Of a stretch of 64,000 nt of DNA, positions 35,809-52,714 are shown piece after piece. Under the pieces are notes generated by a model. That model saw nothing but the letters and a program-made list of their open reading frames with translations. It did no database searches and was not told the origin of the DNA. Origin of the DNA: an uncultured Chloroflexia bacterium (GTDB lineage: Bacteria; Chloroflexota; Limnocylindria; Limnocylindrales; CSP1-4). Position 1 is the stretch's first letter. The number at the start of each line of letters is the position of its first letter. The stretch covers positions 1-64,000 of the forward strand of contig CAVQJC010000010.1 in NCBI GenBank assembly GCA_963712745.1, in the 5' to 3' direction. The translations under genes were made by a program, and so were the position numbers.

Positions 35809-36110
35809 CGCACAAGGTCGAAAGGCCGCCACGCGTACGAGTCGCCCGGGCGTGGCTCGAGCGCCATCCCCGGTGAGCTGCGTGCTCAGACCCACACAAT
35901 GAATGCCTTGGAGAAGGGCCTCACCGGTGACATCGTTGGGTTGTCAAGCAACCAGCACCAGGAGGCCCGCACATGTCGTACGCCGGCTTGGACCTATCGC
36001 GCCAGAGGCTTGATGTGCACGTCGTGGATGAGGACGGCTCGACCGTCGACGTGACCGCCGTGCATCCGGACGCCGACGCCCTGCGGACGCTAACCACGGT
36101 GGTGGCTCGA
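35809..36110 (+). mobile_element. IS110-family relic: left non-coding end plus N-terminal transposase fragment
   Basis: ORF at 35973 (AGGAGG RBS) begins MSYAGLDLSRQRLDVHVVDEDG, resembling the DEDD RuvC-like N-terminus, then degenerates. The upstream ~160 nt contain the CCGGTGAG/CTCACCGG inverted repeat. Confidence 0.65.
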
Positions 36111-36302
36111 GATGAGCGGCTCGAGCGGTCGGCGACGGTCTTGAAGCCATCGCACGAGTCCTCGCCGGCCGGGCCACTTCGTCTTCCTGGCCGTCCGCCT
36201 GCTGGTTCCGGGGTCGAGCTCCTATACTCACCGTGAACCTAGAGGGCCGCGAGGAAGTGTCGGTCGGGGGGCTCTTGATCTCTTCCATCCCTGGAGGGAA
36301 CA

Positions 36303-37460
36303 GTGCCCAAGTCCCGAACCATGCCTCGTCGCTTGCTGGCCGCGCTCGCGCTCGGCTCGAGCCTCGTGGCGGCCAATGCTCTTGTCGCCACGGCCACCAC
36401 ACCCGAGTTGCCCCCGAACGCCGCGGGCTATGTGGCCGTCTGCCCCGATGCCGCGAACGGTGGCCTTCAGACCGTCATCGTGCCCGCGGACGAGGCGGAC
36501 GCACTCGTGACCGAGAGCAGTGTCGGCGCGCCATGCGCGGTCGCGCCCGGTGCCGATGCCTACGGTCCCGCGCCCGATCCCGAGACTGGCCACTACGTCG
36601 GCGAGATCGCCGATGGCATCTTCTGGGTCACCGAGGGCGTGTACCAGGCGATGTTCTTGACGACCGGTGAGGGTGTCATCGTGGTCGATGCCCCGCCGAG
36701 CATCCCGGACATCGCCGGCGCCATCGCCTCGGTCACGGACGAACCGATCACCCACGTCATCTACAGCCACAGCCACGCCGACCACATCGCCGGGGCGGGC
36801 AACTATCCCCCCGAGGCCACGTATGTCGCGCACGCGGACACCGCCGCCCAACTCGAGAAGTCACTGGCCACGAACCCTGCCTGGGGCGCGTTCGTCGGTG
36901 GTGGCCCGGTGCCGCTGCCGACGGTGACCTTCGATGACGCCTACACCCTGGAAGTTGGCGACAAGACGCTCGAGCTCTCGACGCCAAACGTGCTCGCGCA
37001 CGAGCCGGGCAACATCTTCATCTTCGCGCCGGAGCAGAACGTGCTCGCCGTCATCGATCTCGTCTTCCCCGGCTGGTCACCCTTCAAGGACCTGGCCCAG
37101 GCCGAGGACGTCCTCGGATACCTGGCCGCGCATGACGAGATCCTCGCCTTCGGGGCCGACACGATCGTGACCGGCCACATGGGTCGGCTGGGGACGATCG
37201 CGGACGTCGAGCTGAACAAGGAGTACATGGCCGAAATCCAGGCCGCTGCCCTGGCCGCGCTGCAGAGCGTGGCACTCGACCCCATCGCCGCCGAGACCGG
37301 CTATGCCAATCCGTGGCTCTTGTTCGACAGCTACTTCGACGCACTCGTCTCGAGTTGCGAGGCGCAAGTGGTGCCGAACTGGACGGGTCGACTGGCGGGC
37401 GCCGATGTCTTCACAGCCGACCACTGCTATCGGATCTTGGAGTCGCTCCGGATCGACTGA
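36303..37460 (+). CDS. Secreted MBL-fold metallo-hydrolase
   Basis: Signal peptide, GEGVIVVDAP, YSHSHADH (HxHxDH), later D and GH ligands. Confidence 0.85.
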   Translation: MPKSRTMPRRLLAALALGSSLVAANALVATATTPELPPNAAGYVAVCPDAANGGLQTVIVPADEADALVTESSVGAPCAVAPGADAYGPAPDPETGHYVGEIADGIFWVTEGVYQAMFLTTGEGVIVVDAPPSIPDIAGAIASVTDEPITHVIYSHSHADHIAGAGNYPPEATYVAHADTAAQLEKSLATNPAWGAFVGGGPVPLPTVTFDDAYTLEVGDKTLELSTPNVLAHEPGNIFIFAPEQNVLAVIDLVFPGWSPFKDLAQAEDVLGYLAAHDEILAFGADTIVTGHMGRLGTIADVELNKEYMAEIQAAALAALQSVALDPIAAETGYANPWLLFDSYFDALVSSCEAQVVPNWTGRLAGADVFTADHCYRILESLRID

Positions 37461-37575
37461 CTCGCGGTCAGACGCACCAGCGGGGCGACCAGTCTTGGTC
37501 GTCCCCGCACCTCGCCCAGGCTGGGCCGGCACACGATCGGCGGATGGTGACCAAGGGACGCCGCGGGTTGCCCGG

Positions 37576-37665
37576 AAATCGCCAGGCGTGCTCTGTCTGG
37601 TCGTCGCCGCCACGGCGTGGGGCCGACCGTCACTTGACCCGTTGAACGGGGCGGGGATGATGGGA
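37576..37665 (+). repeat. Cassette module copy a (shortened dyad + promoter)
   Basis: AAATCGCCAGG..CTCTGTCTGGT-CGTCGCCGCCACGGC...TTGACC(37634)-N16-GATGAT. Confidence 0.75.
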
Positions 37666-37745
37666 AGCAGCACAAGGGGGACCGAGATGATGTGCTAGTG
37701 GCCGGCTACCCCCGCTGGGTTGAGCGACCGCCGCCGTGCGCAGCA

Positions 37746-37830
37746 CGATGACTGGTCGTCGCCACCGTCACCGTGCCCGCCGGCGGTCCGTTCGTCACTT
37801 GACCCCCTGAAGGCCCCGCCGGACGATGGG
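37746..37830 (+). repeat. Cassette module copy b (right arm + promoter)
   Basis: CGATGACTGGT-CGTCGCCACCG...TTGACC(37799)-N17-GACGAT. Confidence 0.75.
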
Positions 37831-37851
37831 ACCCAACGGAGGTGATGGCTC

Positions 37852-39036
37852 ATGGAGCGGTCTCGCTCGGTCGGGCGGCTCGTCATCAGCACCATCGGAA
37901 TCCTGACCGGGGTGGCCTTCCTCGTCTCCCTGGCCTCGTGGGTGCCCCACACGGTCCTGGCACCGCTCGTCGGGCCCCAGCGGATCGAACGCGCCGAGGC
38001 CGGCTTCGCCATCGCCCTGCCGCTCGACTGGGAGCACGCCGACGCTGTCGATGCGGACCCCGACGAGTGGTGGGACCCCGACGAGGTCGTCTCGGTCGCG
38101 GCGCATCATCGGGAGGTCCTCGCCGATGGAGGCCTGCTGCTGGCCCGCAGCCGTTCACCGTTCTCGACCGACGGCTGCATCCTGTACGACTTCTCTGCTC
38201 GCGCCGCCGAACCACCTACCTGGACCACCCTCGCCCATGTCACGAGCGAGGTCCAGGCCTTCGAGGAGGACCCCGAGGTCATCGACGCCGAGGCCACCTT
38301 CCTCGAGTTGCCCGCGGGTCCTGCCCTGCGCGTCGACGTGCGCCGGTGGGATGGCTGGGACGGAAGCGACTTCTACCTCGCCGATGGGCTGCGCTGGTAT
38401 GAGCTGGACTGCGGAGCGGAGACCGCGCCCGACGACCGCTGGCTCTCCGTCGCCGAGACCTTCGAGTTCCTGCCCGTCGAGGGTATGTCCCGGCCCGTAG
38501 CCAGCCCCGCACCTCAGCGCGTCGAGCGCCCCGAGGCGGGCTTCGCGCTCATCCTGCCGTACGGCTGGCAGTACATGGACGCCGCGGAGGCCGATCCCCA
38601 CGAGTGGTGGGACGCCGAGGTCGTCGACGACGTGGAGGCATACCACGAGTCGCGCATCGCCGATGGCCTGCTCCTGACGGCACGCGCGTACCTGCCCACC
38701 GAGCCCGCGATGCAGCGATGCGACCTCGTCGACCTCACGGACCTGGCGACGATGTCCCCGGCCTGGGCCACGCTCGAGGATGCGGAGCAGGACTTCCGGG
38801 TCTGGTGGAGGGCCGATCCCGAACTGACCGCCTTCGAGGCCGACTACGTCGCTCTTCCCGCCGGACGCGTGCTGTCCATCGACAGCCACTGGCAGGATGA
38901 CCTGGTCGCCCGCGACTACGTGTACACCGACGGCGGGAGATGGTTTCAGCTTCCTTGCTCGACGTGGGGTACCCAGCCCGAGGATCGCTGGCTGGCGATC
39001 GCCGAGACGTTCGAGCTCCTGCCCGCCGACGAGTGA
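37852..39036 (+). CDS. Membrane-anchored protein with two tandem copies of an island-specific domain (PsbP/DUF1795-like by pattern)
   Basis: N-terminal TM; each half runs R.E.(P)EAGFA..LP..W ... P.DRWL.(V/I)AETFE.LP. Confidence 0.7.
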   Translation: MERSRSVGRLVISTIGILTGVAFLVSLASWVPHTVLAPLVGPQRIERAEAGFAIALPLDWEHADAVDADPDEWWDPDEVVSVAAHHREVLADGGLLLARSRSPFSTDGCILYDFSARAAEPPTWTTLAHVTSEVQAFEEDPEVIDAEATFLELPAGPALRVDVRRWDGWDGSDFYLADGLRWYELDCGAETAPDDRWLSVAETFEFLPVEGMSRPVASPAPQRVERPEAGFALILPYGWQYMDAAEADPHEWWDAEVVDDVEAYHESRIADGLLLTARAYLPTEPAMQRCDLVDLTDLATMSPAWATLEDAEQDFRVWWRADPELTAFEADYVALPAGRVLSIDSHWQDDLVARDYVYTDGGRWFQLPCSTWGTQPEDRWLAIAETFELLPADE

Positions 39037-39154
39037 GTCACCGCCAACAAGAAGGGTGGTGACCGACCGTCGCACACGATCGCGCAATCGTGTGGGTGCC
39101 ACGAGAGCTCGCTCCCGCGTCGAAGACCGCCATCTCCTGCGCCGCCGCGCGCGG

Positions 39155-39199
39155 GCCATTCGTCACTTGACCCGCTGAGGCCGGCGCGGAAGATGGGGA
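39155..39199 (+). repeat. Cassette module copy c (promoter half only)
   Basis: CCATTCGTCACTTGACC(39167)-N16-GAAGATGGGGA. Confidence 0.7.
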
Positions 39200-39240
39200 T
39201 ATCGGCAAGGTCGATAGGGTGATCGGGAGGTCCATCGCCG

Positions 39241-39522
39241 ATGGGAGCATTCGAAGCCCGCGAGGTCGCTCGAGTGGCGGTCGGTGTGGCTGCTGTGCTT
39301 GCCCAGACCGGGCTCGCGCTCCTCTACATCGGCTGGGCCATATTCGTGGTCCCGCCACCCGCGATCTTCGTTCTCGCGTGCCTTTGGCTCGCTCAGATGG
39401 TGGTCGTCATCTGGCTCGCCATCCGTGACGCGTGGCTCGCGCCGCTCGTACCGGTCGTGTCGTTCATCTCAGTGATGCTCATCCTCGAGTACGGGAAAGC
39501 GAACCTCGGCTGGGGGGCCTAG
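39241..39522 (+). CDS. Small 3-TM membrane protein
   Basis: Highly hydrophobic 93-aa ORF downstream of module c. Confidence 0.55.
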   Translation: MGAFEAREVARVAVGVAAVLAQTGLALLYIGWAIFVVPPPAIFVLACLWLAQMVVVIWLAIRDAWLAPLVPVVSFISVMLILEYGKANLGWGA

Positions 39523-39547
39523 CCGAGTCGCTGCCTGATTCTCAGCG

Positions 39548-39640
39548 AACCGCCATGAACAACGGGATTGGTCTGGTCGTCGCCGCCGTGGCTGCGGGCC
39601 GTCCGGCCCTTGGCCCACCGACCGGGACGCGGAGGATGAG
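39548..39640 (+). repeat. Cassette module copy d (full)
   Basis: AACCGCCATGA-ACAACGGG-ATTGGTCTGGT-CGTCGCCGCCGTGGC..GGGCCGTCCGGCCC-TTGGCC-N16-GAGGAT. Confidence 0.85.
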
Positions 39641-40133
39641 GCGTGAGTTGAGTCGCCACCCGATGTCGCGGGTCCGACTCACGCGCACGCTCCGGGCATG
39701 AGAGCCACGTCTCGGATCGAGGTACTCCTGTGGGACCGTCAGCGGCAACGAGGTCGCCTTGGGGCGACGCTGGTGCCATGGGCCGATCCTGTGCGTCCGC
39801 CGCAGAAGGATCGTTGAGATGGAAGGATCGGATCGCGGCGCCGGTACCCGGCGCCAGAGGCTCCTACGGTTGCTCGCCGGGGCCGTAGCCGGCTGCCCTG
39901 GACTGGAAGTGGTCGCCACGGATCGCGATGGTCGACGATCGGAGGATGCAGGGTCGGGGCACGTGCTGGGGCCGTCCTCGGATCGAGATGCCGAGAACCA
40001 GCAGCGCGACCTCGTCTCCGTCAGGGATCGGATCGGCCTTGGCTGCTCCCTATTCCCGGGATGCGGCGCGTTCGTGGGCTCGCTCGTGATGTCTGGGATG
40101 CTCATGGTCCTCGCCCGATCGCTGATCAGGTAG

Positions 40134-40595
40134 GTGATGGTCACACCCAGCCCGGCGACGGATGAGTCGCAAGCTGAGTCGCCGCCCGATGTGGCGGGTT
40201 CGACTCAGGCGCACGCTCGGGGCATGACGACATCACGACGCATCATCGCGGTCGTGCTCGGCCTTCTCGGTGCCGAGCGCATCATCTACGCGGACATCGT
40301 CGGCGTGGTGCCCGGGGCGCAATCGACACCGGCGCTCAGCCTAGCCATCGGGCTGGGGGTCCTCATCGCGGCCATGGGGCTCTTCCTGGGTTATGGCTGG
40401 GCACGATGGCCCGCTGTCATCGGTGCGACCCTCGTCGCGCTACAGGGGCTTGGCTACGTCGTCTGGGGCCTCAGCCGGTCTCTCGACCCGGGTTTCCTCC
40501 TCGGCCTCATCGAGCCGGTCCTCTGCGCAGTCATCGTCGTCAGGTTGCTCCTGTATTGGCCACCTGGCGTGTCGTGGGCCGCACGATTGCGATAG
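40134..40595 (+). CDS. Hypothetical 4-TM membrane protein
   Basis: Hydrophobic segments and an LFLGYGWARW pattern. Confidence 0.55.
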   Translation: MMVTPSPATDESQAESPPDVAGSTQAHARGMTTSRRIIAVVLGLLGAERIIYADIVGVVPGAQSTPALSLAIGLGVLIAAMGLFLGYGWARWPAVIGATLVALQGLGYVVWGLSRSLDPGFLLGLIEPVLCAVIVVRLLLYWPPGVSWAARLR

Positions 40596-40859
40596 CCGCG
40601 CATGGCGACGCTGCCATCTACAAGTGCCCTCAGCCACGCCCTGGGGCGGGCCGGCATTGATCCCGGCCCGGGCCGAGGGCCTCGTCGACACTATCTCGCC
40701 ATCGTGGCAGCCGACCTGGTTCGAGGGTTCCGGGTACTGGCACGAGGTTCAGCTTTCACCACCTCGTCGGCTGCGCGCGGGCGCTGCGGGCAACACCGCC
40801 ATGTCTGGGCTGAGGGCTTCCCGAGAGCCTTACAGTAGGTTGACGCGAGGCAGGCAAGG

Positions 40860-41101
40860 CGACTCGTGGCCTACAGCCGTCGGGCGAACCCCTGGGCCGA
40901 GGAGGTGTACCGCCGGGCACGTGCGCGCGGCAAGAGTCATCCCCATGCCGTGCGCATCCTCGCCCGGGCGTGGATCCACGTCATCTGGCGCTGCTGGCAG
41001 GACCGTGTCCCCTACGACCCGGCCCGCCACGGCGCCCTGCAGCGGGTGAACCTCGCCTCGACCGGGGTGGCGGCGTGATCAGGGGTTGACATAGGGCTAC
41101 T
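40860..41101 (+). mobile_element. IS110-family relic: C-terminal transposase fragment and right end
   Basis: SRRANPWA..VY.RARARGK.HPHAVRILARAW..VIWRCWQD..PYDP..H.AL, followed by GGGGTTGACATAGGGCTACT containing an outward -35 TTGACA. Confidence 0.75.
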
Positions 41102-41104
41102 CGG

Positions 41105-41158
41105 CGCGGTCCAAGGCGGCCAACGTACACGGGCCGCACGTCGATGCCTCCCGCTACG
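41105..41158. repeat. Second dispersed repeat (R2), copy 1
   Basis: CGCGGTCCAAGGCGGCCAACGTAC..GGGCCGC.....GCCTCCCGCTACG matches 43223-43275. Confidence 0.75.
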
Positions 41159-41781
41159 CATGACTCTCCCCCGCTGTCCATCGGTTCCGCGGGCACGCGC
41201 ACGAAACGCCACGAGTGGCGGACCCTTCGGGGCTCCCAAGGCCATTGCCGCTCGGGCGTGGCCTCGCCCGCTAGGCGCGATCGCGGGCTGCTCGGTCCAC
41301 GACCCAGGCGGCGAGTGAGGCCCCGACCAGGCTGTCCAGGAGCCCCAGACCGAGGTCGCCGAGCGTATCCCGATTGGCTGTCGCGGCTTCGGGTGAGGTC
41401 ACGTACTCGAGCAGCTCCCAGACGATCGCCGCCGCCGCGCCGAGGTCGTCCGCTCAAGCTCGGGATCGAGCGACCGCCGTGTCCGAGGGGCCCCGCGGGG
41501 CGTGTCCACCTCGACGGCTACATCCGCAACCGCTACAGCACGAACGAGCGGCCACGCTTCCGCTGCCTGCCTGACGACGGCAAGACGCCCTCACACGGAC
41601 CAGCCGAGGACAAGGACGAAGCGAGCTGACCCGCGGGCGACCTCTACCGCTCCGTCGCGGCCCCGTCCTGCTCGCGCATCGAAGCCCTTGACCGGGTTCC
41701 CGCCGACCGCGTAGACCCGCCCGTCCTCGTCTGTGGCTGCGTCCTACACCGCGAACTTGCCAATCGCCGTACCCGGACGTA

Positions 41782-42351
41782 TCAGAGCCGAAGGCGCATG
41801 GCGCATCGGCGGTCGGCTTGCTGCCCGGCCTGGACCTCCAGCTCGAGGATGCGGCGCAGTCGGGAGCTGCACGCTTCGGGGTCGATGACCTCGTAGCCGA
41901 GCGACGCGTAGAACGGTCCGTTCCAGGGCACATCGCTGAAGGTCGTGAGGGTCAGCGCACAGGCTCCGGCGTCACGGGCCTGTGCCTCGATGCGTGCCAT
42001 GAGCCGCGAGCCGATGCCCTGCTGCTGATACGGCTCGCCGACGGCGACCTCCCAGACGTGGACCTCGTGCTCGACGAGCTCGGCACAGATGAACCCCACC
42101 GGGGCGCCGGCGATATCGGCGACCCATGACCAGCCGGCTGCGGCGAAGCGGCGATGTTGGGCCTCATCGAGCACGTCATCGCCGACGATCCACGAGAGCT
42201 CGGGGATGGTCGCGAAGGAGCGGGCTGCAGACCGCTCGACAGCGGGAAGCTGTCGGACGTCGGCGTCCGTGGTGCGGCGGATGGTGATGCGTGTCGCGTC
42301 GATGACATCCTCCTCGTCCACCACGATGCGGCGGATGGGCCGAAGTGGCAA
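41782..42351 (-). CDS. GNAT family N-acetyltransferase
   Basis: L..VERSAA..F, HVWEVAV...YQQQGIG..L and LTLTTFSDVPWNGPFY..LGY motifs. Confidence 0.9.
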   Translation of the reverse strand: MPLRPIRRIVVDEEDVIDATRITIRRTTDADVRQLPAVERSAARSFATIPELSWIVGDDVLDEAQHRRFAAAGWSWVADIAGAPVGFICAELVEHEVHVWEVAVGEPYQQQGIGSRLMARIEAQARDAGACALTLTTFSDVPWNGPFYASLGYEVIDPEACSSRLRRILELEVQAGQQADRRCAMRLRL

Positions 42352-42455
42352 TACCCGGGGACCCGCTTGACGCGGGGAGCGGCAGGTGCGTGCTTCGCCA
42401 GGCCGGCTCGCCTACGAGGCAGAGATGCAGCGAGTACCGCTGTCAAACGTCGAGT

Positions 42456-42500
42456 ACCGCTGAAAGAGAGCGGGTCATGTCTGGTCGTCGCCACCATGGC
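42456..42500 (+). repeat. Cassette module copy e (right arm + linker)
   Basis: AGAGCGGG-TCATGTCTGGT(42475)-CGTCGCCACCATGGC. Confidence 0.8.
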
Positions 42501-42539
42501 GATGCACGCGCTGCAGGCGGCCGAGGCGGCACGATGTCG

Positions 42540-43174
42540 CTATTCGGTGGGCCAGTCGGCGCTGTAGTTCAGCATGCCCTCGGACATGACCGGAACCGGA
42601 GTCCCCGGCTGAGACAGCGGTTCGGCTTCGAAGATGTAGCCCTCGTAGGTCAGTTCGTAGGGACCGTGGGCCAGCACCTCGGCCGTCCCGTGCAACAGTG
42701 CGTAGAGGCCCTCGTAGGCGCCCTCGCCTTCGAGCCTGTAGAAGCCGTACTGGTCCTCGCCGGAACCAGCCTTGACGAAGCGCCCACTCCCGTGCCAACT
42801 CCCGTCCTCGTCCTCCGGCAGGTGGTTGGTGGTGGTCGTGACCGCGCCCTTCTCCGTGTCCCAGTCATAGACCATCTGGTAGCGCGCCGTGAACCAGTGC
42901 CTGGCCGGAAGACGGGGGTCGCTCCACTCGACCGACTGCTCGATGAGGCCAACGGGCGCATCACACACTCTGGAGTAGCCACGCACGTCGGGACACGGGC
43001 TCGGCTCCGGTTCGTCCGCTGCCGACACACCGTCGTGAGCCCACTGCTCGACCACGGTCACGATGACGAAGGTACGGGTGCCGGTTCCTCGTCCTGCGCA
43101 GCCACAGTCACGGACAGACCACCGACCAGCATCAGGATGACCGCCCCAACCAGAGATAGTCGGAATTGACGCAT
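42540..43174 (-). CDS. Secreted hypothetical protein (frameshift near 43060), paralog of 53079-53342 and 54021-54569
   Basis: Signal peptide MRQFRLSLVGAV..VAAQD in one frame; mature part with SDPRL, GSW.G, L.GEGAYEGL.A and Y.GYIF in the next. Confidence 0.6.
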
Positions 43175-43222
43175 GACAAGCCTCCTCGGCTCGTACACGG
43201 GTCGGGTTCGCCAGTGGCTCAT

Positions 43223-43275
43223 CGCGGTCCAGGCGGCCAACGTACGTGGGCCGCGTCTCGCAGCCTCCCGCTACG
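43223..43275. repeat. Second dispersed repeat (R2), copy 2, upstream of the minus-strand gene starting at 43174
   Basis: CGCGGTCCAGGCGGCCAACGTACGTGGGCCGCG....GCCTCCCGCTACG. Confidence 0.75.
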
Positions 43276-43319
43276 TAGATCCTCCCGCGGGCGTCTACCA
43301 GCCCCGAGTGCTACTCCAG

Positions 43320-43424
43320 AATCGCCACGTATGACGGGTTTGGCCTGATCGTCGCCGCCAGGGCGACGTACGGCCCAGCGCCGTCCGGCCCTTGACCCGC
43401 AGGGCAGGGCGCGGAGGATGGGGA
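43320..43424 (+). repeat. Cassette module copy f (full)
   Basis: AATCGCCACGT-ATGACGGG-TTTGGCCTGAT-CGTCGCCGCCAGGGC...CCGTCCGGCCC-TTGACC(43392)-N16-GAGGAT. Confidence 0.85.
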
Positions 43425-43445
43425 CGCACGAGGGAGGACCCGAGA

Positions 43446-43620
43446 TGCGGCATCTCCTCGCGACCTCGACCGCCCTCGCCCTCGCGAGCCCGCGACCTGC
43501 TTGGGCGCGTCCTGGAGGCAGAGTCCCGCCTCCTCGGGCTCGAGCACCCGCACACGCTCAACACCAGTGACAGTCTGGCGGCACTGGGAGTGCCTGACCC
43601 AGAGGCGACCGACCGACTAG
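43446..43620 (+). pseudogene. Chimeric relic: signal-peptide start followed by a TPR (kinesin light chain-type) fragment
   Basis: GGGAGG RBS then MRHLLATSTALALA; another frame reads RVLEAESRLLGLEHPHTLNTSDSLA. Confidence 0.45.
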
Positions 43621-43649
43621 GACTGGCCGACTCGAGGGGTCCACCCATG

Positions 43650-43679
43650 AATCGCCATGAACAGCGGGTCATGTCTGGT
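43650..43679 (+). repeat. Cassette module copy g (30-bp dyad only)
   Basis: AATCGCCATGA-ACAGCGGG-TCATGTCTGGT; similarity stops at the end of the right arm. Confidence 0.85.
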
Positions 43680-43863
43680 GAGTACTTCCGCTCTGGGCTC
43701 GCGCCGCTCGGCCGTCTCCGACGGCGGCCGCAGATGGTCCGAGGCTTGTGGCATCATCACCCGCGCCCTGCAGCTCGCTGTCAGCCCTGAGGGGTCCGGT
43801 CGCGTCCGTACGCAGGCTCCGGGGATTGACATCTGCGCTGGCTCGTGAGGGAGATCCCGTCAA

Positions 43864-44955
43864 GTGTCGACCTGGCTCGTCGAATCTGAGTATTCGCTCG
43901 CCTTCTTCGTCGTGCTCGTGCTCCTACTGCTGGCCCCGTGGCTTTCACGCCAGTACGCGAGATACGGCCGCCTGACGGGCTGGCCGGGACTACTGTCCGC
44001 CGGCACCGTGGCCTACGTCTGCGCCCTGGTGGCGTTCACGCTCTTCCCGGTGCCGCAGCTCAGCCCCGAGATCTGCGCAGACCAGGTCCCGGGCGCACAT
44101 CTTCGCCTCATGCCCCTGCAATCCTTCGCGGGCGCCTGGGCCGAGGTCGGCCGCATCGGCCCGGTCGCGTCGCTGACCTCGTTCGCTACGCTCCAGATCG
44201 TCTTCAACGTGGTGTTCTTCGTGCCGCTGGGGTTCCTGCTCGGTCACCGCTGGCGGAAGGGCCTGGTCACGACCTTCCTGATCGGCTTCGGGGTCTCGCT
44301 GCTCATCGAGTCGACGCAGGGCTCGGCTGTCTGGGGCCTCTTCCCGTGTCCATACCGGGTAGCGGAGGTTGACGACCTCATCACGAACACGACCGGCGCG
44401 GCTATCGGCTGGCTCGTGGCTTTCATCCTGCGCGATCGCCTGCCCGACCCCGATCCGAAGGCGGTCGCCGACGCTGCATCGCCCGGACTGATCCGGCGAG
44501 CCGGAGCAGTCCTCATCGACGTGCTCGTCATCTTCGAGATCGTCATCATCAGCGCGCTCATCGCGCTCGGCGTTCTGCTGGCCTTCGATGCCACCGGGGC
44601 CCAGGTCCTCGACGGCGCGGAGCTTGCCATCGATGCCGTCCAGCTGGTCGTCCTCGGGCTCCTCCTCGTGGTCGTTCCCAGCCGGCGGGCGGACCGCGCG
44701 ACGCCGGGGACAGCCGCCCTGCACCTTGCGGTGAGCGCGAGCGACGGCTCCCCGGCACGTCTCCATCAGCTGTTGATACGAGCCATGATCCGCTACCTGC
44801 CCCTACTGATCATCGGGCTGCCATGGGTGGCGTTCGGACTCCTGGACCTCCTGGTCGCCCTACTCCGCGCCGACCGCCGAACGTTGACGGACCTGGTCTC
44901 GAGTACCGTGACGGTGACCCGGACCACCCGGCAGACACGACGGCAGTCCGCGTAG
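43864..44955 (+). CDS. VanZ family membrane protein with C-terminal RDD domain
   Basis: FTLFP.P, Q..FNV.FFVPLG, SLLIE.TQ, CPYR...VDDLITNT.G, then RRA.A.LID and T.G. Confidence 0.88.
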   Translation: MSTWLVESEYSLAFFVVLVLLLLAPWLSRQYARYGRLTGWPGLLSAGTVAYVCALVAFTLFPVPQLSPEICADQVPGAHLRLMPLQSFAGAWAEVGRIGPVASLTSFATLQIVFNVVFFVPLGFLLGHRWRKGLVTTFLIGFGVSLLIESTQGSAVWGLFPCPYRVAEVDDLITNTTGAAIGWLVAFILRDRLPDPDPKAVADAASPGLIRRAGAVLIDVLVIFEIVIISALIALGVLLAFDATGAQVLDGAELAIDAVQLVVLGLLLVVVPSRRADRATPGTAALHLAVSASDGSPARLHQLLIRAMIRYLPLLIIGLPWVAFGLLDLLVALLRADRRTLTDLVSSTVTVTRTTRQTRRQSA

Positions 44956-45182
44956 GGTCGGCGACGGACGGGGCGCCGCGGAGGTGGCTCTGCCAGACCA
45001 TGACCACCGACATGACATGCAAGGCCGCGACGCCCGAACCGACGACAGCAGGGAGTTCCGCGTTCGATCCCCAAGTGTGCTCCGTCGACATCCCGGGCCA
45101 GCGCGGCCTTCGCTTCGACTGGCACACGCGGAGGCCATACGGTCTGGGCGATGAGAGCCGACCCGAGGGCTCCGAAAGTCAG

Positions 45183-45212
45183 GATCGCCATGCGTAGCGG
45201 GTTTGGTCTGGT
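45183..45212 (+). repeat. Cassette module copy h (30-bp dyad only)
   Basis: GATCGCCATGC-GTAGCGGG-TTTGGTCTGGT. Confidence 0.85.
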
Positions 45213-45240
45213 GCGTTCACGCTCTGCGCAAGCGGATCTG

Positions 45241-46285
45241 TCAATCAGCGGTCCGCCACAGCTCCCAGACGGGTGGGCGGCGAACGATGGACAGCTCCCT
45301 GATCTCGTCACCCCGCTGCAGCTTGAGGTCGAGGTTCTGCCCGATCGCTCCCTCTGGCACGTCCATGCTGGTCTCAACCGGCCGGCCGTCCGCCTCAAGG
45401 ATGATATCGCCGACCTGGACGCCGGCCGCATCCGCTGCGCCACCGGGGACGACACCGTTGATGAGGTTCGGAGTGATGGAGTAGTCCATCCGGATCCCGA
45501 GCCAGCCGAGCTGCGGACAGAGGTCTCCTGGCTCAGGCACCACGCCATCGAGCAGGAACTGCAGCAGTCGCTCGTCGAGGCACGGGTCGACGCCGGCCAA
45601 GGCGACTGCGTGACCGGACCCGTCCCAGGTCAGCAGGGTCGCGTTCGGCCCCAGCTCCTCGGCCAGGGCGACACTCCACGCATAGGGCGTGATGGCATCG
45701 TACGAGTTGCCCACCACCACGATCGGGGCCGAGCCGGTGTAGTCCACGGCCGGGATACCGGAGCCCGAGACAGGCCACAGATCGCAGGGCACACTCCAGA
45801 CCGGGCCGGCGTTGGGTGCCAGCGCGAAGGTCCGCTCCGCCTCCTCGAGCAGGTCCGCGGAGGTACCCGCGTACGGGCTCCCGTCCGCGCAGATGACAGC
45901 CTCGCGTGAAGCCGCACCTCCCGCAGGAGCCGCGAAGAAGCTGGTCACGTCCAGCAGCGAACCATCGCCATCGAGCGCCATGGCCAGCCCGGGGGCCACA
46001 TCGAGGATGACCCGGGGGAAGGTGTACAGCGCGTCGATGGCAGCCTCGAACCGTGGTTCCTCCAACGACCCGATGTCGCCGTGCCTGATGAGCTCGTCAC
46101 GGACCTTTGCGATGGCCGACAGGAGCCCGATGTCCGACACGGGACACGCCTCCCACGCGTCACACGAGCGATCAAGGCGCTGCAACTGGTCCTCGAAGGC
46201 CTCGGCTCGCCTGTCGCTGTTGACGAGTGCGGGGTCGTTGACGACCGCAGAGTCCAGGACCACGGTCCCTGCGCGCGGCGGCGAA
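45241..46285 (-). pseudogene. N-terminally truncated alpha/beta-hydrolase (TAP-like) with C-terminal PDZ domain
   Basis: Starts at (M)VLDS, just after where the GxSYG nucleophile region would be. Retains GNSYDAITPY and GSGH, plus PDZ-like GG.ADAAGVQVGD.I...DG. The 5' end abuts module i. Confidence 0.7.
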
Positions 46286-46289
46286 GGCT

Positions 46290-46361
46290 AATCGCGTTGA
46301 ACAACGGGTGATGTCTGGTCGTCGCCACAATGGCAAGGCGCGCCGCTGTCCGTCCGGCCCT
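46290..46361 (+). repeat. Cassette module copy i (dyad + linker + hairpin, -35 lost)
   Basis: AATCGCGTTGA-ACAACGGG-TGATGTCTGGT-CGTCGCCACAATGGCAAGGCGCGCCGC..CCGTCCGGCCC. Confidence 0.85.
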
Positions 46362-46662
46362 GCGTCTACGCGCGAGACGCATCTACGCTGGTGCAGCAGT
46401 CTTCTCGGCATTCCTCGCGGCCGACTCCATCGACCTGGTCCCACCCGACGAGACTGAGACCCGCCCGGTCATCACTGACCTCGGCCCTGTCATCGAGGCC
46501 GGCCGCATCGTGCGACCTGAGGTGGGCTTCGCGGTCACGTTCCCCGACGACTGGACCGTCCGGGAACCGACACCCGCGGGCGCAGCGTCGCTGATGGCGG
46601 GCTCGGACCCTCGCGCGGACGCCCAGCTGCTGGCCGACTCCGCAGAACGAGGTGAGGTCTGC
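46362..46662 (+). pseudogene. N-terminal fragment of the EAGFA..FP..W family, cut at module j
   Basis: TM, then GRIVRPEVGFAVTFPDDW...EVC, running directly into the module j spacer. Confidence 0.65.
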
Positions 46663-46740
46663 ACGGGTGATGCCTGGTCGTCGTCGCTGCGCCGCCGGGC
46701 CGTCCGGCCCTTGACCCACCGGGTGGCGCGCACAGGATAG
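46662..46740 (+). repeat. Cassette module copy j (left arm replaced by coding DNA)
   Basis: ACGGG-TGATGCCTGGT(46668)-CGTCG..GCCGCCGGGCCGTCCGGCCC-TTGACC(46711)-N16-CAGGAT. Confidence 0.85.
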
Positions 46741-46765
46741 GTCGTATCCGCACTGGGGGACCGTC

Positions 46766-47524
46766 ATGCACCGGTACCTGGCTATCCTCACGCTCGGGCT
46801 CCTGACGGCGATTCTGTCGGGGTGCCAGCTGCTCGGGGCACTCCTGCCCGATGGCGCGGGCGGACTCCCCATGGCAGGGACCTGCGCCACCTATCAGGTG
46901 GTCGCTACCGAGGACCGGGCGGCCACCCCGGAGATCCTCGAGCAGACGCGAACGATCATCGCGAATCGCGTCAACGCCACCGGTGTGGCAGAGCCTGTCG
47001 TCGTCACCCAGGGCGAGGACCGCATCTCGGTCGACCTAACAGGGCTGGAGGCCGAGTCCGACTTCGGCAGCGTCAGGAGCCTCATCGGCACGACCGGTGT
47101 GCTCGAGTTCACCCCGGTCCCACCCGCTTGTGCATCCGAGGTCCTCCAAGGTGCTCGACTGCCTGCGTGCATGCTCGGCGTCGAACCGATCTTCGATGGC
47201 ACCGAAATCGCGGCAGCCCGCGTCGAACAGGACCAGACCACCAGCGAGATCGTGGTCAACCTCGAGCTCAAGGACAACGGCGCACGCCTCTTCGACGAGC
47301 ACGCCGCCGACCACTTCGGCGAGCAATTCGCCATCGTCCTCGACGGCATCGTCGAGTCGGCGCCCTCCATCAACGCCAGGCGCTTCGGTGGCCAGGCTCA
47401 GATAAGCGGCGACTTCACCATCGAGCAGGCCACCAACCTGATCGCGGTCATGAGGTACGGCCCCCTGCCCCTGGAGATCCGCGAGGTCGGCTTCGGCGCA
47501 TGTGAGCCGCTGGGCTCGTCCTGA
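46766..47524 (+). CDS. Lipoprotein consisting of a stand-alone SecD/SecDF P1 head domain
   Basis: Lipobox ILSGC; II.NRVNA.GVAEPVV..QG.DRI.V.L, G.LEF, AIVLDG.V.SAP.I, QISGDFT..A..L...R.G.LP; no SecD TM bundle. Confidence 0.8.
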   Translation: MHRYLAILTLGLLTAILSGCQLLGALLPDGAGGLPMAGTCATYQVVATEDRAATPEILEQTRTIIANRVNATGVAEPVVVTQGEDRISVDLTGLEAESDFGSVRSLIGTTGVLEFTPVPPACASEVLQGARLPACMLGVEPIFDGTEIAAARVEQDQTTSEIVVNLELKDNGARLFDEHAADHFGEQFAIVLDGIVESAPSINARRFGGQAQISGDFTIEQATNLIAVMRYGPLPLEIREVGFGACEPLGSS

Positions 47525-47635
47525 GCGGAGCGGGGCGTACGGGCCAGCCAGCCGGGGCCACGACACCGACGACCAGTCTGCGCAGGTCGTCGGGCTCACC
47601 TCTTCGACTCACGGACTGCGGCAAGGCACCGGCCA

Positions 47636-47736
47636 AACCGCCATGCATAGAGGGTGATGTCTGGTCGTCGCCGCCATGGCATCGCACGCTGCCGGGCCCT
47701 CCGGCCCTTGACCTATTGAACGGGACGGCGAGGATG
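47636..47736 (+). repeat. Cassette module copy k (full)
   Basis: AACCGCCATGC-ATAGAGGG-TGATGTCTGGT-CGTCGCCGCCATGGC...GCCGGGCCCTCCGGCCC-TTGACC(47708)-N16-GAGGAT. Confidence 0.9.
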
Positions 47737-47755
47737 TAGGCCAAGGGGGGTGCAC

Positions 47756-48439
47756 ATGCCCGACGGCCTGGTGCTGGTCATCCTGCTAGCGGTCGTCCTC
47801 TCGCTCGTGGGGACGGTGGGACGAGGACCGCGTCGGCAGGGCGTCGAGACCAAGACCGTGCGCTACAGCGCCCGGACCATCGACGATGCGCAGCGCCGCT
47901 ATTCTGCGGACGCCACCCTCTTCACGAGCACCGGCTGGGCCGTCCACTCGGTGGCCTGGGACGTGCAGGCGCAGCGGCCGACCCTGGTGGCGACCTATGC
48001 ACGGTTCGCTGGGGAGGACCCACGCCTGGAGCTGGCTGAGTGGTCGCTGCGATCGCTGGCCGGGTTCCGCAGGTACGCCGCGGCCATCCTGACTGCGATC
48101 GCCGTTCCCGTCATCGCGTCGGTCCTGCTCGAAGACACCGGCGTGTCCACCGGCGTCGGTGCCGTCGCGATGCTGTCGTTGCTCGTCCTCGGGGTCGTCT
48201 TCGGGGTGCGCTCGGAGCATCTGGCCAAGGGACCGGACAAGTGGCTCGATTGGTCGGTGGTCATCGTCGGAGCGATCCTCGGAGGCTTCGCTGTCCTCGT
48301 GTTCGTCGTGTTCGTCGCCATGTTCGGCAGCCTCTTTGGGCTGTACACGGCAGCCGCGGTGTTCGGCGCCTGGCTCGCGCTGCGCTCGGCCATCGCGGGA
48401 GCACGGATGCTCACCTCTCGGCGACAGCGGCCAGCCTGA
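47756..48439 (+). CDS. Hypothetical membrane protein
   Basis: N-terminal TM, soluble ADA...GW...S.AWD...LVATY segment, four C-terminal TMs; directly behind module k. Confidence 0.65.
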   Translation: MPDGLVLVILLAVVLSLVGTVGRGPRRQGVETKTVRYSARTIDDAQRRYSADATLFTSTGWAVHSVAWDVQAQRPTLVATYARFAGEDPRLELAEWSLRSLAGFRRYAAAILTAIAVPVIASVLLEDTGVSTGVGAVAMLSLLVLGVVFGVRSEHLAKGPDKWLDWSVVIVGAILGGFAVLVFVVFVAMFGSLFGLYTAAAVFGAWLALRSAIAGARMLTSRRQRPA

Positions 48440-48505
48440 CCTTCTTTGGCGCGGGCAAGGTTCGTTCCGTGAACCTTGCATGAGCACACCCGTTCCCGCG
48501 CCGCA

Positions 48506-48556
48506 ACGCCGCCGGGTCGTCCAGCCCTTCACCCGCGGAGCGGGGTGCGGAGGATC
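48506..48556 (+). repeat. Cassette module copy l (degenerate promoter half)
   Basis: ACGCCGCCGGGTCGTCCAGCCC-TTCACC-N16-GAGGAT. Confidence 0.75.
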
Positions 48557-48805
48557 GGGTGACAAGCCGGTTGGGGGGCGTAATGGCAAAGCGAGTGGGG
48601 CTGCTGGCTGGGTTGGTGGTGGTCTTGACGCTGGGGACTGGGGTGGTGGCGCAGGAGCCGATGCCAGAGCCGCCACCGTGGTTCGGCGGCCGTGCCGTCT
48701 CGCGGAGGTAGCGCCGTCGACTCGTCGTCCCGGTGGACATGGCGGTTGGCGGGGAGTAGCGTTCCGGCCTTGACATGCTGGGGGCTGGCATCCGGAGGTC
48801 TTGTT

Positions 48806-49828
48806 ATGGATCGAAAGAGGTCGCATCTTCGATCGGCTACCGTGGTGGCCCTGGCAATCTCACTGCCTGGAGCGGTCGTCGCGCAGGACATGCCAGCCTC
48901 GCCCGAGGGGCGGACATGGGAGCTTGCCGCGTACATGGACGATGCCGGCATGGCCACGGTGCCGGACGACCCGACCGCGACCCTCATGCTGGTTGACGGC
49001 GTCGCGTCGGGCAGCGCCGGCTGCAACCAGTTCTCCGGCAGCTACGAGCTCGACGGTGCATCGCTCACGTTCGCGCCGGAGTTGGCGCTGACGATGATGG
49101 CCTGCAAACCAGCGGCGGAGGAACTCGAGACTGCGTACATGGCCCTGCTGCCGACGACGAACTCGTGGCAGTCGACCGACGCGGGGCTCCAGCTCCTCGA
49201 TGCCGAAGGTGCCGTCATCCTCGAGTACACCGGGCAGGAGCCGGATCTCGCGACGGTAGTCGCGCTGCTGGAGGCGTTGCGCGCCGAGGTGAGCGAGCTG
49301 CGGTCACGCGTCGATGCGCTCGAGGCGACCGAAACCGCAGATGGCGGGTCCCAGGCAGGTGGCAGCGAGCGAGCCAGCAAGCCCACGGCTCCGAGGTCGC
49401 GAGGCAAGGTCAAGACCCGGTTTCCCGCCTGGATGCGCGATGGCGTCCCGCCGGACCGGATCGAGGACCTGAACCGTGAGGTCGTCCGCTGGCGCGACCG
49501 CGCCGACGACGAGGATGGCTTCCGCGTCTATGCCCGTCGTGGCTTCTGCGAGCTCAGGCCCGGCTCCGACCCGAACCAGCCAGTGGGCGAGGACGACTTC
49601 CGGCGCTCACGTACGAAGGCCGCGCTGATAGAAGAGCTGCCCGCCGACACGAACCGCTATCGGCCCGACCACGAGGCCATCGACGCGGCCCTGCCGGAGG
49701 TGCCGGAATCGCCCTACTCGAACGACCAGTTCTACGACCTGTACGTCGCCGCGTTCAACGACGCCGGTGAGACGAAGCCGGTGCGGGTCGCGTCGTTCTT
49801 CCTGACGCCGGAGTTCCGCTGCCCGTAG
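48806..49828 (+). CDS. Secreted META (HslJ-like) domain protein with coiled coil and C-terminal FN3-like region
   Basis: Signal peptide, W.L, G.AGCN.F.G.Y, TMMAC and E.AY...L; C-terminal W.D.ADDEDGFRVY...Y.V.AFN.AG. Confidence 0.8.
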   Translation: MDRKRSHLRSATVVALAISLPGAVVAQDMPASPEGRTWELAAYMDDAGMATVPDDPTATLMLVDGVASGSAGCNQFSGSYELDGASLTFAPELALTMMACKPAAEELETAYMALLPTTNSWQSTDAGLQLLDAEGAVILEYTGQEPDLATVVALLEALRAEVSELRSRVDALEATETADGGSQAGGSERASKPTAPRSRGKVKTRFPAWMRDGVPPDRIEDLNREVVRWRDRADDEDGFRVYARRGFCELRPGSDPNQPVGEDDFRRSRTKAALIEELPADTNRYRPDHEAIDAALPEVPESPYSNDQFYDLYVAAFNDAGETKPVRVASFFLTPEFRCP

Positions 49829-49860
49829 GCAAGGCCGGCTCCAAGAAGGCATGGAGATAA

Positions 49861-49890
49861 TCGCCGTCGCCGTCGCCGTCGCCGTCGCCG
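49861..49890. repeat. Hexanucleotide microsatellite (TCGCCG)5
   Basis: tcgccgtcgccgtcgccgtcgccgtcgccg. Confidence 0.85.
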
Positions 49891-50045
49891 AAATCGACCG
49901 CGCGGCCAAGCATCGCTGACCGCCTCCTTCGATGTATCCCCGACCTCGACGTCGCGGGATTGTCGGCGGTCCGATCACGCCCGATCCCCGCATCCCATGG
50001 CCAAGCCAACCCTACTGCCCGGACACATCCTCCGGAGTCATCCGA

Positions 50046-50150
50046 AATCGCCATGCATAGCGGGTTTGGCCTGGTCGTCGCCACCATGGCAAGGCGCGCC
50101 GCCGGGCCGTCCGGCCCTTGACCCGCTGAGCGGGGGGCGGAGGATGGGGC
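50046..50150 (+). repeat. Cassette module copy m (full, closest to consensus)
   Basis: AATCGCCATGC-ATAGCGGG-TTTGGCCTGGT-CGTCGCCACCATGGCAAGGCGCGCCGCCGGGCCGTCCGGCCC-TTGACC(50118)-N16-GAGGAT. Confidence 0.92.
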
Positions 50151-50151
50151 C

Positions 50152-50838
50152 ATGGCTTGGTTCAGACCGGCTCGCAATAGGGACCATCCCGGAGATCCGC
50201 CTCCCAAGTGGGCACCCATGGGCAGAGCTGGCCGCGTGGTCCTCGTGATCACCGTCATCGTGGGGGTGGTCATCGCCCTCCTGATCATGTCGACCAGGAC
50301 GGCTGGCGCAGCCGACGGCACGGACGGACCCGCCGCCACCGCGGAGTCAGTGGCCCCGCCATCGTTCGGCCAGCGGGTCGAGGTACCCGAGGCAGGTTTC
50401 GCGGTTACGTTCCCGCTCGATTGGGAGGTCAGCATCGACACCAGCGATGTGCCCGGCGAAGGGGGAACCTTCGCGGTGGTCTCCGGTCGGGAAGCCGCGA
50501 GCGATGTCACCTGCGAGGTATACCTGTACGGCCCCTGCACCGGGTCCTCGTTCGGCGACTGCGCTGCGGCCCTCGACGAGGTAGCCGCACGCATGGTCGC
50601 CTACTTCGAGGGCGACGAGTCGTCCTCCCGGACCGATGAGTCCGCGGCGATGGACCTCCCGGCGGGCTACGCCGTCCGGGTCGATACCGAGTGGATCGAC
50701 GAGGGCGTCTTCGGCTCCCTGTACCTGCTGACCGACGGGAAGGTCCACGACTCCCTGCGATGCCGTGGCTCGGAGCGTCCTGAGGACCGCTGGCTCTCCA
50801 TCGCCGAGACCTTCGCCTTCCTGCCCGCCGAGGAGTAG
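50152..50838 (+). CDS. Membrane-anchored protein with a single EAGFA..FP..W / DRWLSIAETF domain (start may be 50218)
   Basis: TM, then QRVEVPEAGFAVTFPLDW ... PEDRWLSIAETFAFLPAEE; paralog of 37852-39036. Confidence 0.7.
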   Translation: MAWFRPARNRDHPGDPPPKWAPMGRAGRVVLVITVIVGVVIALLIMSTRTAGAADGTDGPAATAESVAPPSFGQRVEVPEAGFAVTFPLDWEVSIDTSDVPGEGGTFAVVSGREAASDVTCEVYLYGPCTGSSFGDCAAALDEVAARMVAYFEGDESSSRTDESAAMDLPAGYAVRVDTEWIDEGVFGSLYLLTDGKVHDSLRCRGSERPEDRWLSIAETFAFLPAEE

Positions 50839-50875
50839 GCGGGCGAGGGCCAGTGCAGGGTCCGCTGGCTTCAGG

Positions 50876-50976
50876 GATCGCCATGAGTAGCGGGCTATCT
50901 CAAGTCGTCGCCGCCATGGCGATGGACGACGCCGGGCCGTCCGGCCCTTGACCCGCTGACCGGGGCGGGGAGGATA
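50876..50976 (+). repeat. Cassette module copy n (full)
   Basis: GATCGCCATGA-GTAGCGGG-CTATCTCAAGT-CGTCGCCGCCATGGC...GCCGGGCCGTCCGGCCC-TTGACC(50948)-N16-GAGGAT. Confidence 0.92.
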
Positions 50977-51009
50977 GAGGGGAGGGGCCACGAAGAAGCC
51001 TGGCCTGGG

Positions 51010-51549
51010 GTGTCTGACATGGGGACCGCGATTCGACGACCGATGATCACCATCCTGATGGCCTGCCTCTGCATTGTCCCTGTCTCCGCCACCGCGGCGC
51101 AGTCACCATCACCGACCATCGGGGCGCCCGTCCTGGGCACAGGGACCGACGCGCTCGCCTGGCTCACCTCCATGGGCATCGTCGGCGTCGAAGCTGTCCC
51201 GACGGCGGACGGACAGTTGCGCTGGGAGGCGACCCTCTCCATGGGCGAGGCGGGAGCCGATATCACCTTGGAGTTCGTCGGATCCCCCGAGGCGCTGACG
51301 AGCGCGTCGCTGACGACGAGCACGGACAGCGACTCCTACGCGGGCTCCTTGATCGTCCTATGGGCCCAGCAGTTCCATCCCGAGAGCCTCGATTTCATCG
51401 TCAATGCGCTCCTGCGGGGGGCCTTCCTCGAAGGGATGGACGCGGAAGCCGATTTGCCGGACAGCACTGTCCACGTGACGACGGCCATGGACCCCGATGC
51501 CCCTCTCGGCGAGGAGACCATGTCGATCACCATCACGATCAAGGACTGA
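51010..51549 (+). CDS. Secreted hypothetical protein
   Basis: Signal peptide ending ATAAQS, acidic mature domain; directly behind module n. Confidence 0.65.
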   Translation: MSDMGTAIRRPMITILMACLCIVPVSATAAQSPSPTIGAPVLGTGTDALAWLTSMGIVGVEAVPTADGQLRWEATLSMGEAGADITLEFVGSPEALTSASLTTSTDSDSYAGSLIVLWAQQFHPESLDFIVNALLRGAFLEGMDAEADLPDSTVHVTTAMDPDAPLGEETMSITITIKD

Positions 51550-51614
51550 CCACCTGCGAGGACCTCGAGTACGACGCCTGCCCGTGTCGCAAGTACGTCG
51601 ACCACGTGACGTGC

Positions 51615-51662
51615 CGGCTCTCCATCGCCGAGACCTTCGAGTTCTTGCCGCAGGCGGAGTAG
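51615..51662 (+). pseudogene. Orphan 3' end of a DRWLSIAETF-family gene
   Basis: CGGCTCTCCATCGCCGAGACCTTCGAGTTCTTGCCGCAGGCGGAGTAG encodes RLSIAETFEFLPQAE*. Confidence 0.7.
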
Positions 51663-51688
51663 CCGTGGCAATCCGTCGCTGGCGGGGG

Positions 51689-52669: not shown

Positions 52670-52714
52670 GAATCGCATGAATAGCGGGCGGTATCTGGTC
52701 ATCGCCACTATGGC
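52670..52714 (+). repeat. Cassette module copy o (dyad + linker)
   Basis: GAATCGCATGA-ATAGCGGG-CGGTATCTGGT-CATCGCCACTATGGC. Confidence 0.8.

Follow-up and report, generated by a model that had tools for sequence, protein, structure and literature searches.

Sedentary chromosomal integrons, as described in PMC4889954, carry long arrays of homogeneous, co-oriented sites that separate diverse and mostly unknown genes. Their head site, attI, is distinct from the sites inside the array, and IS elements occur within the arrays. The same source describes clusters of attC sites lacking an integrase (CALIN; Cury et al. 2016). The rAID-1 clusters of Bacteroidales have a 5′ gene for a XerD-family recombinase and co-directional genes of low GC content (Ross et al., 10.1101/471110). 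Their intergenic sequences are repetitive, with one motif after the array head and another between the ORFs. The authors compare the clusters to integrons, and rAID-1 has been linked to immunity. In Xer-dependent modules, including the pdif modules of Acinetobacter (PMC6449649, PMC7399989), and with the cer-type sites of plasmids, gene modules are delimited by short sites, on which a host recombinase acts in trans. Here, a repeat family from a clade of Limnocylindrales-like Chloroflexota represented by metagenome-assembled genomes is compared with these systems. With moderate confidence, the repeat is interpreted as a recombination site at the cassette junctions of an integron-like system without an integrase gene of its own.

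The window, the whole stretch of DNA analysed, comprises 64,000 nucleotides and represents positions 1–64000 of contig C10 of a metagenome-assembled genome (G000; 20 contigs, 84.55% complete, 5.03% contaminated). A repeat finder located a family of direct repeats at 37.5–54.8 kb. One member, copy g at 43650–43679, had been described in the initial annotation as a 30-mer with the 11-8-11 architecture of Xer dif or cer sites. The sequence AATCGCCATGAACAGCGGGTCATGTCTGGT, in this division AATCGCCATGA-ACAGCGGG-TCATGTCTGGT, is indeed present there and occurs only once in the window at up to three mismatches. The full repeat is longer, with about 48 nt and the consensus AATCGCCATGAATAGCGGGTTWTGTCTGGT plus CGTCGCCGCCATGGC; the 30-mer constitutes its left part. 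An alignment of the 32 best copies reads AATCGCCATGAATAGCGGGT-TWTG-TCTGGTCGTCGCCGCCATGGC and also displays the previously noted spacer that usually ends in CGGG. Information per position is high at positions 2–10, 12, 14–20 and 24–46, with a minimum at 11 and 21–23. The set of distinct left halves from this genome and from loci fetched from relatives numbered 111, and 101 of these continue past base 30 into a right half that agrees with CGTCGCCGCCATGGC at a minimum of 10 positions out of 15. Because conservation continues past base 30, the conserved unit has a length of about 46–48 nt, and copies g and h are truncated. Both copies do lose similarity after the right arm, as had been observed, but the 30-mer is not the unit of the family.

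A perfect 10-nt palindrome, CGCCATGGCG, is part of the right half, with a half copy of it in the left half. A conserved hairpin was not found: two of eight single-strand folds reached z < −2, and their structures differ. An attC-like or terminator-like hairpin was rejected on account of these inconsistent folds. The GTTRRRY box is not visible in the consensus of the 32 best copies. A terminator scan yielded two sites against 3.6 expected, none of them at a repeat, and an Rfam search at E-values up to 1 returned no match besides a riboswitch aptamer. The repeat is not a coding sequence, as the frame starting from the conserved ATG meets a TGA in the GTGATG copies. Nor does it belong to the REP/BIME or MITE classes, with 40 of 44 copies located within three arrays and without a conserved hairpin.

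The copies were counted with a profile built from eight window copies (nhmmer, E < 0.06). The genome has 44 copies, 12 of them in the window, and the 40 array copies have a single orientation in each array. The window array (C10, 37577–52670) has 12 copies, all on the plus strand, in agreement with the earlier observation of exclusively direct copies. The array on C7 (67095–76973) reaches the contig end and has 12 copies, all on the plus strand; the array on C17 (158009–175950) has 16, all on the minus strand. Outside the arrays, two copies are located on the minus strand of C1 and one each on the plus strand of C4 and C20. Within the genus, the 22-mer GTCTGGTCGTCGCCGCCATGGC is present at up to two mismatches in 17 of 48 other species, 12 of which have at least three copies. 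The reversed 22-mer, used as a control, was detected in none of the 49 genomes of the genus, and the 22-mer itself in none of 16 genomes of the sister family. The right-half 15-mer alone is uninformative as a probe, the motif being too common in GC-rich coding DNA.

The window array begins beside a hisA/priA-like gene (35080–35808, plus strand), directly past its stop codon. Homologues of hisA with 53–86% identity were present in all five congeners searched. A remnant of a variant first site, GCCGCCACGCGTACGA, is located at 35825–35840 on the plus strand. It aligns with the hisA-linked first sites of the relatives G021, G005 and G022 and is cut by an IS110-family fragment. The profile search identified a site of this first type, AATCGCCAGGCGTGCTCTGTCTGGT plus CGTCGCCGCCACGGC, at 37577–37619 on the plus strand. 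The remaining sites have the same orientation. Full junction sites, consisting of the left 30 nt and the right half, are located at 39548–39595 (nhmmer E 5e-11), 43320–43367, 46290–46337, 47636–47683, 50046–50093 and 50876–50923. The final clear junction site of the array is at 52670–52717. A forward leader follows the site at 43320 (leader at 43381–43425) and those at 47636, 50046 and 50876. The last of these, copy n, reads CTATCTCAAGT at its right arm, as in the initial annotation. The junction site at 42456–42503 has a divergent left end and is among the few TCATG copies. A partial site at 46649–46696 misses the left end, is kept from ACGGGTGATGCCTGGT on and precedes a forward leader. Copy g and copy h (45183–45212) are represented by the left half only, with similarity lost after GTCTGGT.

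Genes in the arrays were predicted with our own GC3-based script, without a gene caller, and assigned to families by Pfam. The sites of the window array separate unrelated genes, coding for a GNAT acetyltransferase (41782–42351, minus strand), a VanZ and RDD protein (43864–44955), a TAP-like hydrolase with a PDZ domain (45241–46263, minus strand), a SecDF-P1-like lipoprotein (46766–47524) and a META-domain protein (48806–49828). Several other genes code for secreted or membrane proteins without a family. A run of the hexamer GCCGTC (49855–49899) lies 3′ of the META-domain gene. The GC content of the arrays, 0.67–0.69, is like that of the remaining genome. Site orientation stays constant while gene orientation varies, and full sites without a leader also occur between convergent genes, for example at C17:166590. 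Elsewhere in the window, positions 24238–24468 contain imperfect tandem repeats with periods of 12–66 nt that are G-rich on the plus strand, lie in a region of strongly positive GC skew (0.127) and probably encode a low-complexity protein segment on the minus strand.

Reverse cassettes have an aptamer of the c-di-GMP-II-GCG/GAG type that precedes the gene on the gene's own strand. In the window, a GCG-type aptamer at 43191–43276 on the minus strand (Rfam 57 bits, gathering score 47.9) leads the gene at 42540–43061, also on the minus strand. A further 28 aptamers reached or exceeded the gathering score in 99.6 kb of array sequence taken from three genomes: six on C7 and four on C17 of G000, eight in G021 and ten in G005. 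The cassettes led by these 28 riboswitches all run antiparallel to the repeats. To our knowledge, the ligand of the c-di-GMP-II-GCG and -GAG variant classes has not been established. The proteins of the reverse-cassette family begin with MRTLRLSL. Partial riboswitch-type leaders without an obvious gene are located at 41105–41158 and 53782–53826, with 85% identity over 54 nt to 43223–43275. In three metagenome runs, the read depth of the riboswitch module was 41–125 compared with about 1–9 nearby.

Forward cassettes carry a different conserved leader, ..CCGTCCGGCCCTTGACC-N16/17-GGAGGAT.., with 11 modules in the window array. Its TTGACC-N16/17-GAGGAT arrangement may be promoter-like; a scan for E. 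coli-type promoters flagged one forward leader only, at 37634. The GGAGGA of the leader at the copy starting at 50046 could be the ribosome-binding site of an ORF starting at 50152. Many forward-cassette proteins belong to one family and end with ..WLSIAETFEFLPAEE before the stop codon, which lies around 35 nt ahead of the next repeat. In a protein atlas, the family showed no more than a weak PsbP/LpqN-like resemblance (score 0.94, 153–164 shared features). Orphan pieces of the C-terminal motif (..SIAETFEFLP..) are present at 51603–51662 and 54631–54685, where the remaining gene is absent; these pieces probably derive from cassettes that have been lost.

A core gene precedes each array start, either hisA, a carbamoyltransferase gene, an rpiB-like gene or the neighbour of eno. 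Arrays follow hisA in the window and in G021, G005 and G022. The carbamoyltransferase gene precedes the arrays on C17 and on C6 of G005, and the rpiB-like gene those on C7 and in G014. The anchor positions are identical in five relatives, with different array content. All 11 genomic array starts examined have a variant first site that combines a shorter left half, ..TCGCCAGGCGTACGAYGTCTGGT, with the usual right half CGTCGCCGCCATGGC; the conserved boxes of the variant are 5 nt closer together. A search for the first-site pattern in metagenomes yielded ten short contigs, and in four of these the site sits immediately at a stop codon. An empty site was found in the repeat-free genomes G001 and G010. 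There, hisA is directly followed by a convergent DUF1801 gene, an EF-G-like gene and ruvCAB, and in G001 the stop codons of hisA and the DUF1801 gene are about 12 nt apart. In the window, the DUF1801 gene is the distal flank of the array region (55314–55841, minus strand; Pfam 27.1 bits against a cut-off of 27.2). Since hisA adjoins DUF1801 in G001 and G010, the window region 35808–55314 (19.5 kb) is an insertion relative to those genomes.

Sequence comparison placed the junctions of repeats with unrelated DNA at site positions 29–37 or at position 1, and none at 11–20. Four to five copies with only the left half break at positions 29–35: similarity ends at 29 or 30 in copy g and one copy of G021, and within 30–35 in copy h, a second copy of G021 and the locus L018. 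The arrays on C7 and C17 share blocks of 98–99% identity, C7:67097–68310 with C17:173587–174800 and C7:68454–69143 with C17:171229–171919. A block of 99% identity common to C7 and C17 begins at a left half of the first type. In C17 this block is preceded by a complete ordinary left half, and the junction is therefore at 30|31. A block of 98.4% identity ends at site position 37. Between two shared blocks, C7 and C17 differ by what appears to be a deletion between leader modules and not the outcome of site-specific recombination. A duplicate of 99.6% identity in G014 begins at site position 1, so the left half there travelled with the downstream cassette.

Cassette blocks common to arrays or species are 91–99% identical, compared with 80–83% for the flanking his genes, which indicates a recent exchange. 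For the 98–99% identical blocks of C7 and C17, the explanation is either a recent exchange between arrays or two strains collapsed in a bin with 5.03% contamination. Short Logan contigs contained no excised circle and no precise deletion joint; the joints present there are between repeated modules, with sides of 20–44 nt. The best of the public runs has 53% of the sampled words.

The arrays have also been visited by IS110-family elements. An N-terminal transposase fragment (35973–36236, plus strand) interrupts the first site after hisA. It has no Pfam match itself, and its N-terminus is near-identical to that of a copy at C1:109258–110217, which adjoins a mini-array of two repeats and matches the NCBIfam model transpos_IS110 at 95 bits, under the cut-off of 140 bits. 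A putative C-terminal fragment is located at 40866–41078 on the plus strand (no Pfam match at E 0.01). G013 (locus L011, around 13500–15050) and G022 (loci L006 and L007 joined, 19220–20960) each carry an IS110-family element of about 1.5 kb whose insertion point is the same AG, site positions 14–15, with AG on both sides and the transposase gene antiparallel to the repeats. PF01548, the IS110 domain, was present in 12 of 13 genomes with at least three sites and in 20 of 36 genomes without arrays. It was absent in the array-rich G053 with its 23 sites. IS110 was consequently rejected as a required recombinase of the arrays. IS1111-type elements insert precisely in attC sites. The exact dinucleotide hit in two species resembles such targeting of repeated sites by IS1111/IS110 elements (for these elements, see PMC11187229, PMC11208160). 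The insertion marks the repeat as an IS target and does not reveal the function of the repeat. Judged from these sequences, IS110 uses the repeat as a target and does not make the arrays.

Several lines of evidence support the interpretation of the repeat as a junction site. The arrays have one orientation, with unrelated cassettes placed both ways and sites even between convergent genes. Anchors are shared while content differs, the hisA site is empty in some relatives, and all array starts examined have the variant first site. Breaks at 29–37, shared blocks of high identity and the precise IS110 insertion are in agreement. The initial annotation had suggested that host XerC/D or a related tyrosine recombinase may act at the repeat. 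The idea of a recombination site fits the junction placement irrespective of gene orientation, the variant first sites, the empty site and the clustered breakpoints; the specific Xer- or dif-like layout is not supported. Other observations count against a junction site: the lack of a recombinase gene beside any array start, of an excised circle or precise deletion joint in the short contigs, of dyad symmetry around the inferred crossover and of a conserved hairpin, together with the position-1 duplicate in G014 and the C7/C17 deletion between leader modules. Most sites adjoin a leader on one side, which leaves room for a role in expression.

Each array opens with the variant first site, immediately behind a core gene's stop codon. 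Its co-oriented internal sites, AATCGCCATGAATAGCGGGTTWTGTCTGGT plus CGTCGCCGCCATGGC, separate unrelated cassettes equipped with expression signals of their own. In the junction-site reading, a recombinase whose gene lies elsewhere in the genome would recognise the site. The crossover is predicted around GGT|CGTCGCC at positions 29–37. The left half would then stay with the upstream cassette, and the right half and the leader with the downstream cassette. The direct orientation of the sites would lead to excision and re-insertion, not to inversion. A more specific and tentative version is an undescribed Chloroflexota analogue of integrons, with several chromosomal arrays per genome that are seeded by attI-like sites at the stop codons of core genes. 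In this version, self-expressed cassettes, with a promoter-like leader or a c-di-GMP-II-variant riboswitch, would be joined by the sequence-conserved 48-nt site, and XerCD or an unrecognised host enzyme would act on it in trans near GGT|CGTCGCC.

XerCD is one candidate for this recombinase. A search for tyrosine recombinases, as recommended earlier, revealed a XerD-like gene (C4:255534–256532, 313 bits) and a XerC-like gene (C4:214781–215800, 298 bits), both just below the equivalog cut-off. Among tyrosine recombinases, only XerC and XerD turned up in each of the six genomes searched for them, namely G000 and five congeners with arrays. IntI was not found in the metagenome-assembled genome, which is 84.55% complete: two Xer-like proteins reached 126 and 114 bits against the TIGR02249 cut-off of 265. 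Four PF00589 matches in this genome are not near an array, nor was one found near the arrays of the five relatives. None of 11 genomic and 10 metagenomic array starts has a recombinase gene beside it. A phage-type integrase (C12:6671–8431), a fragment at C17:376381 and the single serine recombinase (C1:7382–7927) are not linked to the arrays and were dismissed as array recombinases.

It is very unlikely that the 30-mer itself is a Xer site with an 11-8-11 layout, in which AATCGCCATGA is the XerC arm and TYATGTCTGGT the XerD arm and host XerC and XerD move the cassettes. The presence of both genes in G000 and the five array-bearing relatives is in line with this proposal, as are the Xer-dependent precedents of Acinetobacter (PMC6449649, PMC7399989). 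Like the sites of such modules, the 30-mer is able to stand alone, as seen in copies g and h and two copies of G021. The test is the comparison with the true dif, which had been called for and was located. Allowing one mismatch at most, the pattern CATAA-N6-TTATG has two matches in 4.2 Mb. The site at C10:83909–83936, ACTTCCGATAA-TGCAAG-TTATGTAACAT, is intergenic, lies at the minimum of the cumulative GC skew of the contig and, at up to three mismatches, is present as a single copy in 32 of the 49 genomes from the genus (reversed control 0). These properties and its conserved arms are those expected of dif. It is located 20 kb past the window end, and the hisA-linked array is about 29 kb away, a proximity in line with the proposal. 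Copy g matches the real dif arms at 6 + 6 of 22 positions, a value reached by 0.022% of the window 30-mers, but the 11-8-11 register had been picked for its CATAA/TTATG look, so most of these matches are not independent. In the same pre-selected register, family members have 4–6 plus 3–8 matches. Copies with TTATGT share the inner six bases with the real XerD arm, while the outer five bases of that arm match at one of five positions. In the 32 genomes, the dif arms are conserved and the spacer varies, the opposite of the repeat with its conserved centre and an inner XerD-like arm that is its most variable part. The inner dyad CATGA-N8-TCATG, described for copy g, is there in its exact form and nowhere else in the window, but it is not a family feature. 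With one mismatch, it has four matches in the window against 1.35 expected; six of 100 shuffles reach four, and the dyad alone is thus within chance. CATGA and TCATG occur together in two of 35 good genome copies, TCATG in 4 and CATGA in 16, and the commonest word at positions 20–24 is TTTGG (10 copies), followed by TTATG (5), TCATG (4), TGATG (4) and 12 others found once each. The breakpoints at 29–37 are not at the borders of the 12–19 centre, and in the first-site variant, being 5 nt shorter, the central region would have 3 nt. The pdif sites have an 11-6-11 layout with conserved arms and alternate in orientation. The repeat copies differ from these in being all direct, with a conserved centre, no conserved dyad and nearly always an extra right half of 16–18 nt. 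The earlier comparison with the actinobacterial dif is not applicable to a host from the Chloroflexota.

Two other explanations do without a dedicated recombinase or without a recombination site. The repeat may be an intergenic control or insulator element, for instance an operator, with arrays grown by tandem duplication of a family of secreted proteins with its flanks. Many cassettes are paralogous, with the forward ..WLSIAETFEFLPAEE and the reverse MRTLRLSL families, a leader, either forward or of the reverse riboswitch type, flanks most sites, and the palindrome CGCCATGGCG with its half copy is operator-like. We consider this unlikely, as the fixed site orientation contrasts with the variable gene orientation and full sites are found between convergent gene ends. 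The sites also flank unrelated genes, the variant first site is located at the stop codon of unrelated core genes, and array content changes from species to species at an unchanged anchor. The four copies outside the three arrays, two on C1 and one each on C4 and C20, are not at dispersed promoters. Alternatively, the sites could serve as portable homology only, for RecA-dependent exchange or gene conversion over junctions of 48–105 nt. Identities of 85–100% over about 50–105 nt, as observed for the junctions, suffice for homologous exchange. The arrays have no linked recombinase, and some endpoints are in other conserved modules or at the site edge, as in the G014 pair. This explanation is quite improbable: homology cannot yield the repeated breaks within the same 6–8 bases beside unrelated DNA, and the first-site variant does not vary. 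Species with a divergence of 17–20% in their his genes share an identical 22-mer, which points to recognition of a specific sequence, although homogenisation by frequent exchange could have the same effect.

As a junction site, the repeat places the arrays closest to sedentary chromosomal integrons and CALIN (PMC4889954). Shared traits are the long arrays of homogeneous, co-oriented sites between diverse and mostly unknown cassette genes, a head site that is distinct like attI, IS elements inside the arrays and, as in CALIN, no nearby integrase. Unlike attC, the repeat has a conserved primary sequence without a conserved hairpin or GTTRRRY/RYYYAAC boxes, and the metagenome-assembled genome has no recognised IntI. 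The cassettes differ as well, carrying their own leaders and lying both ways, and a genome has several arrays, each of which is anchored to a core gene at its 3′ end. The rAID-1 clusters (10.1101/471110) have a comparable pair of intergenic motifs, one after the head and another between ORFs. The arrays of this study differ from them in the lack of a recombinase gene, in genes oriented both ways and in the genome-like GC content of 0.67–0.69. Recombination by a host enzyme in trans, as proposed for the repeat arrays, is a feature of the Xer-dependent modules. The literature on Chloroflexi integrons and attC cassettes and on Limnocylindria cassettes, supplementary lists aside, yielded no account of such arrays.

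Should a recombinase act on the sites in trans, the arrays would represent cassette capture without an own integrase, in a phylum with barely known mobile-element biology. They would then also be relevant to the turnover of CALIN. The exact 22-mer core offers a simple probe for such arrays in metagenomes. With dozens of variant c-di-GMP-II-type riboswitches in front of genes for secreted proteins with no assigned function, the arrays are a natural test bed for these orphan variants.
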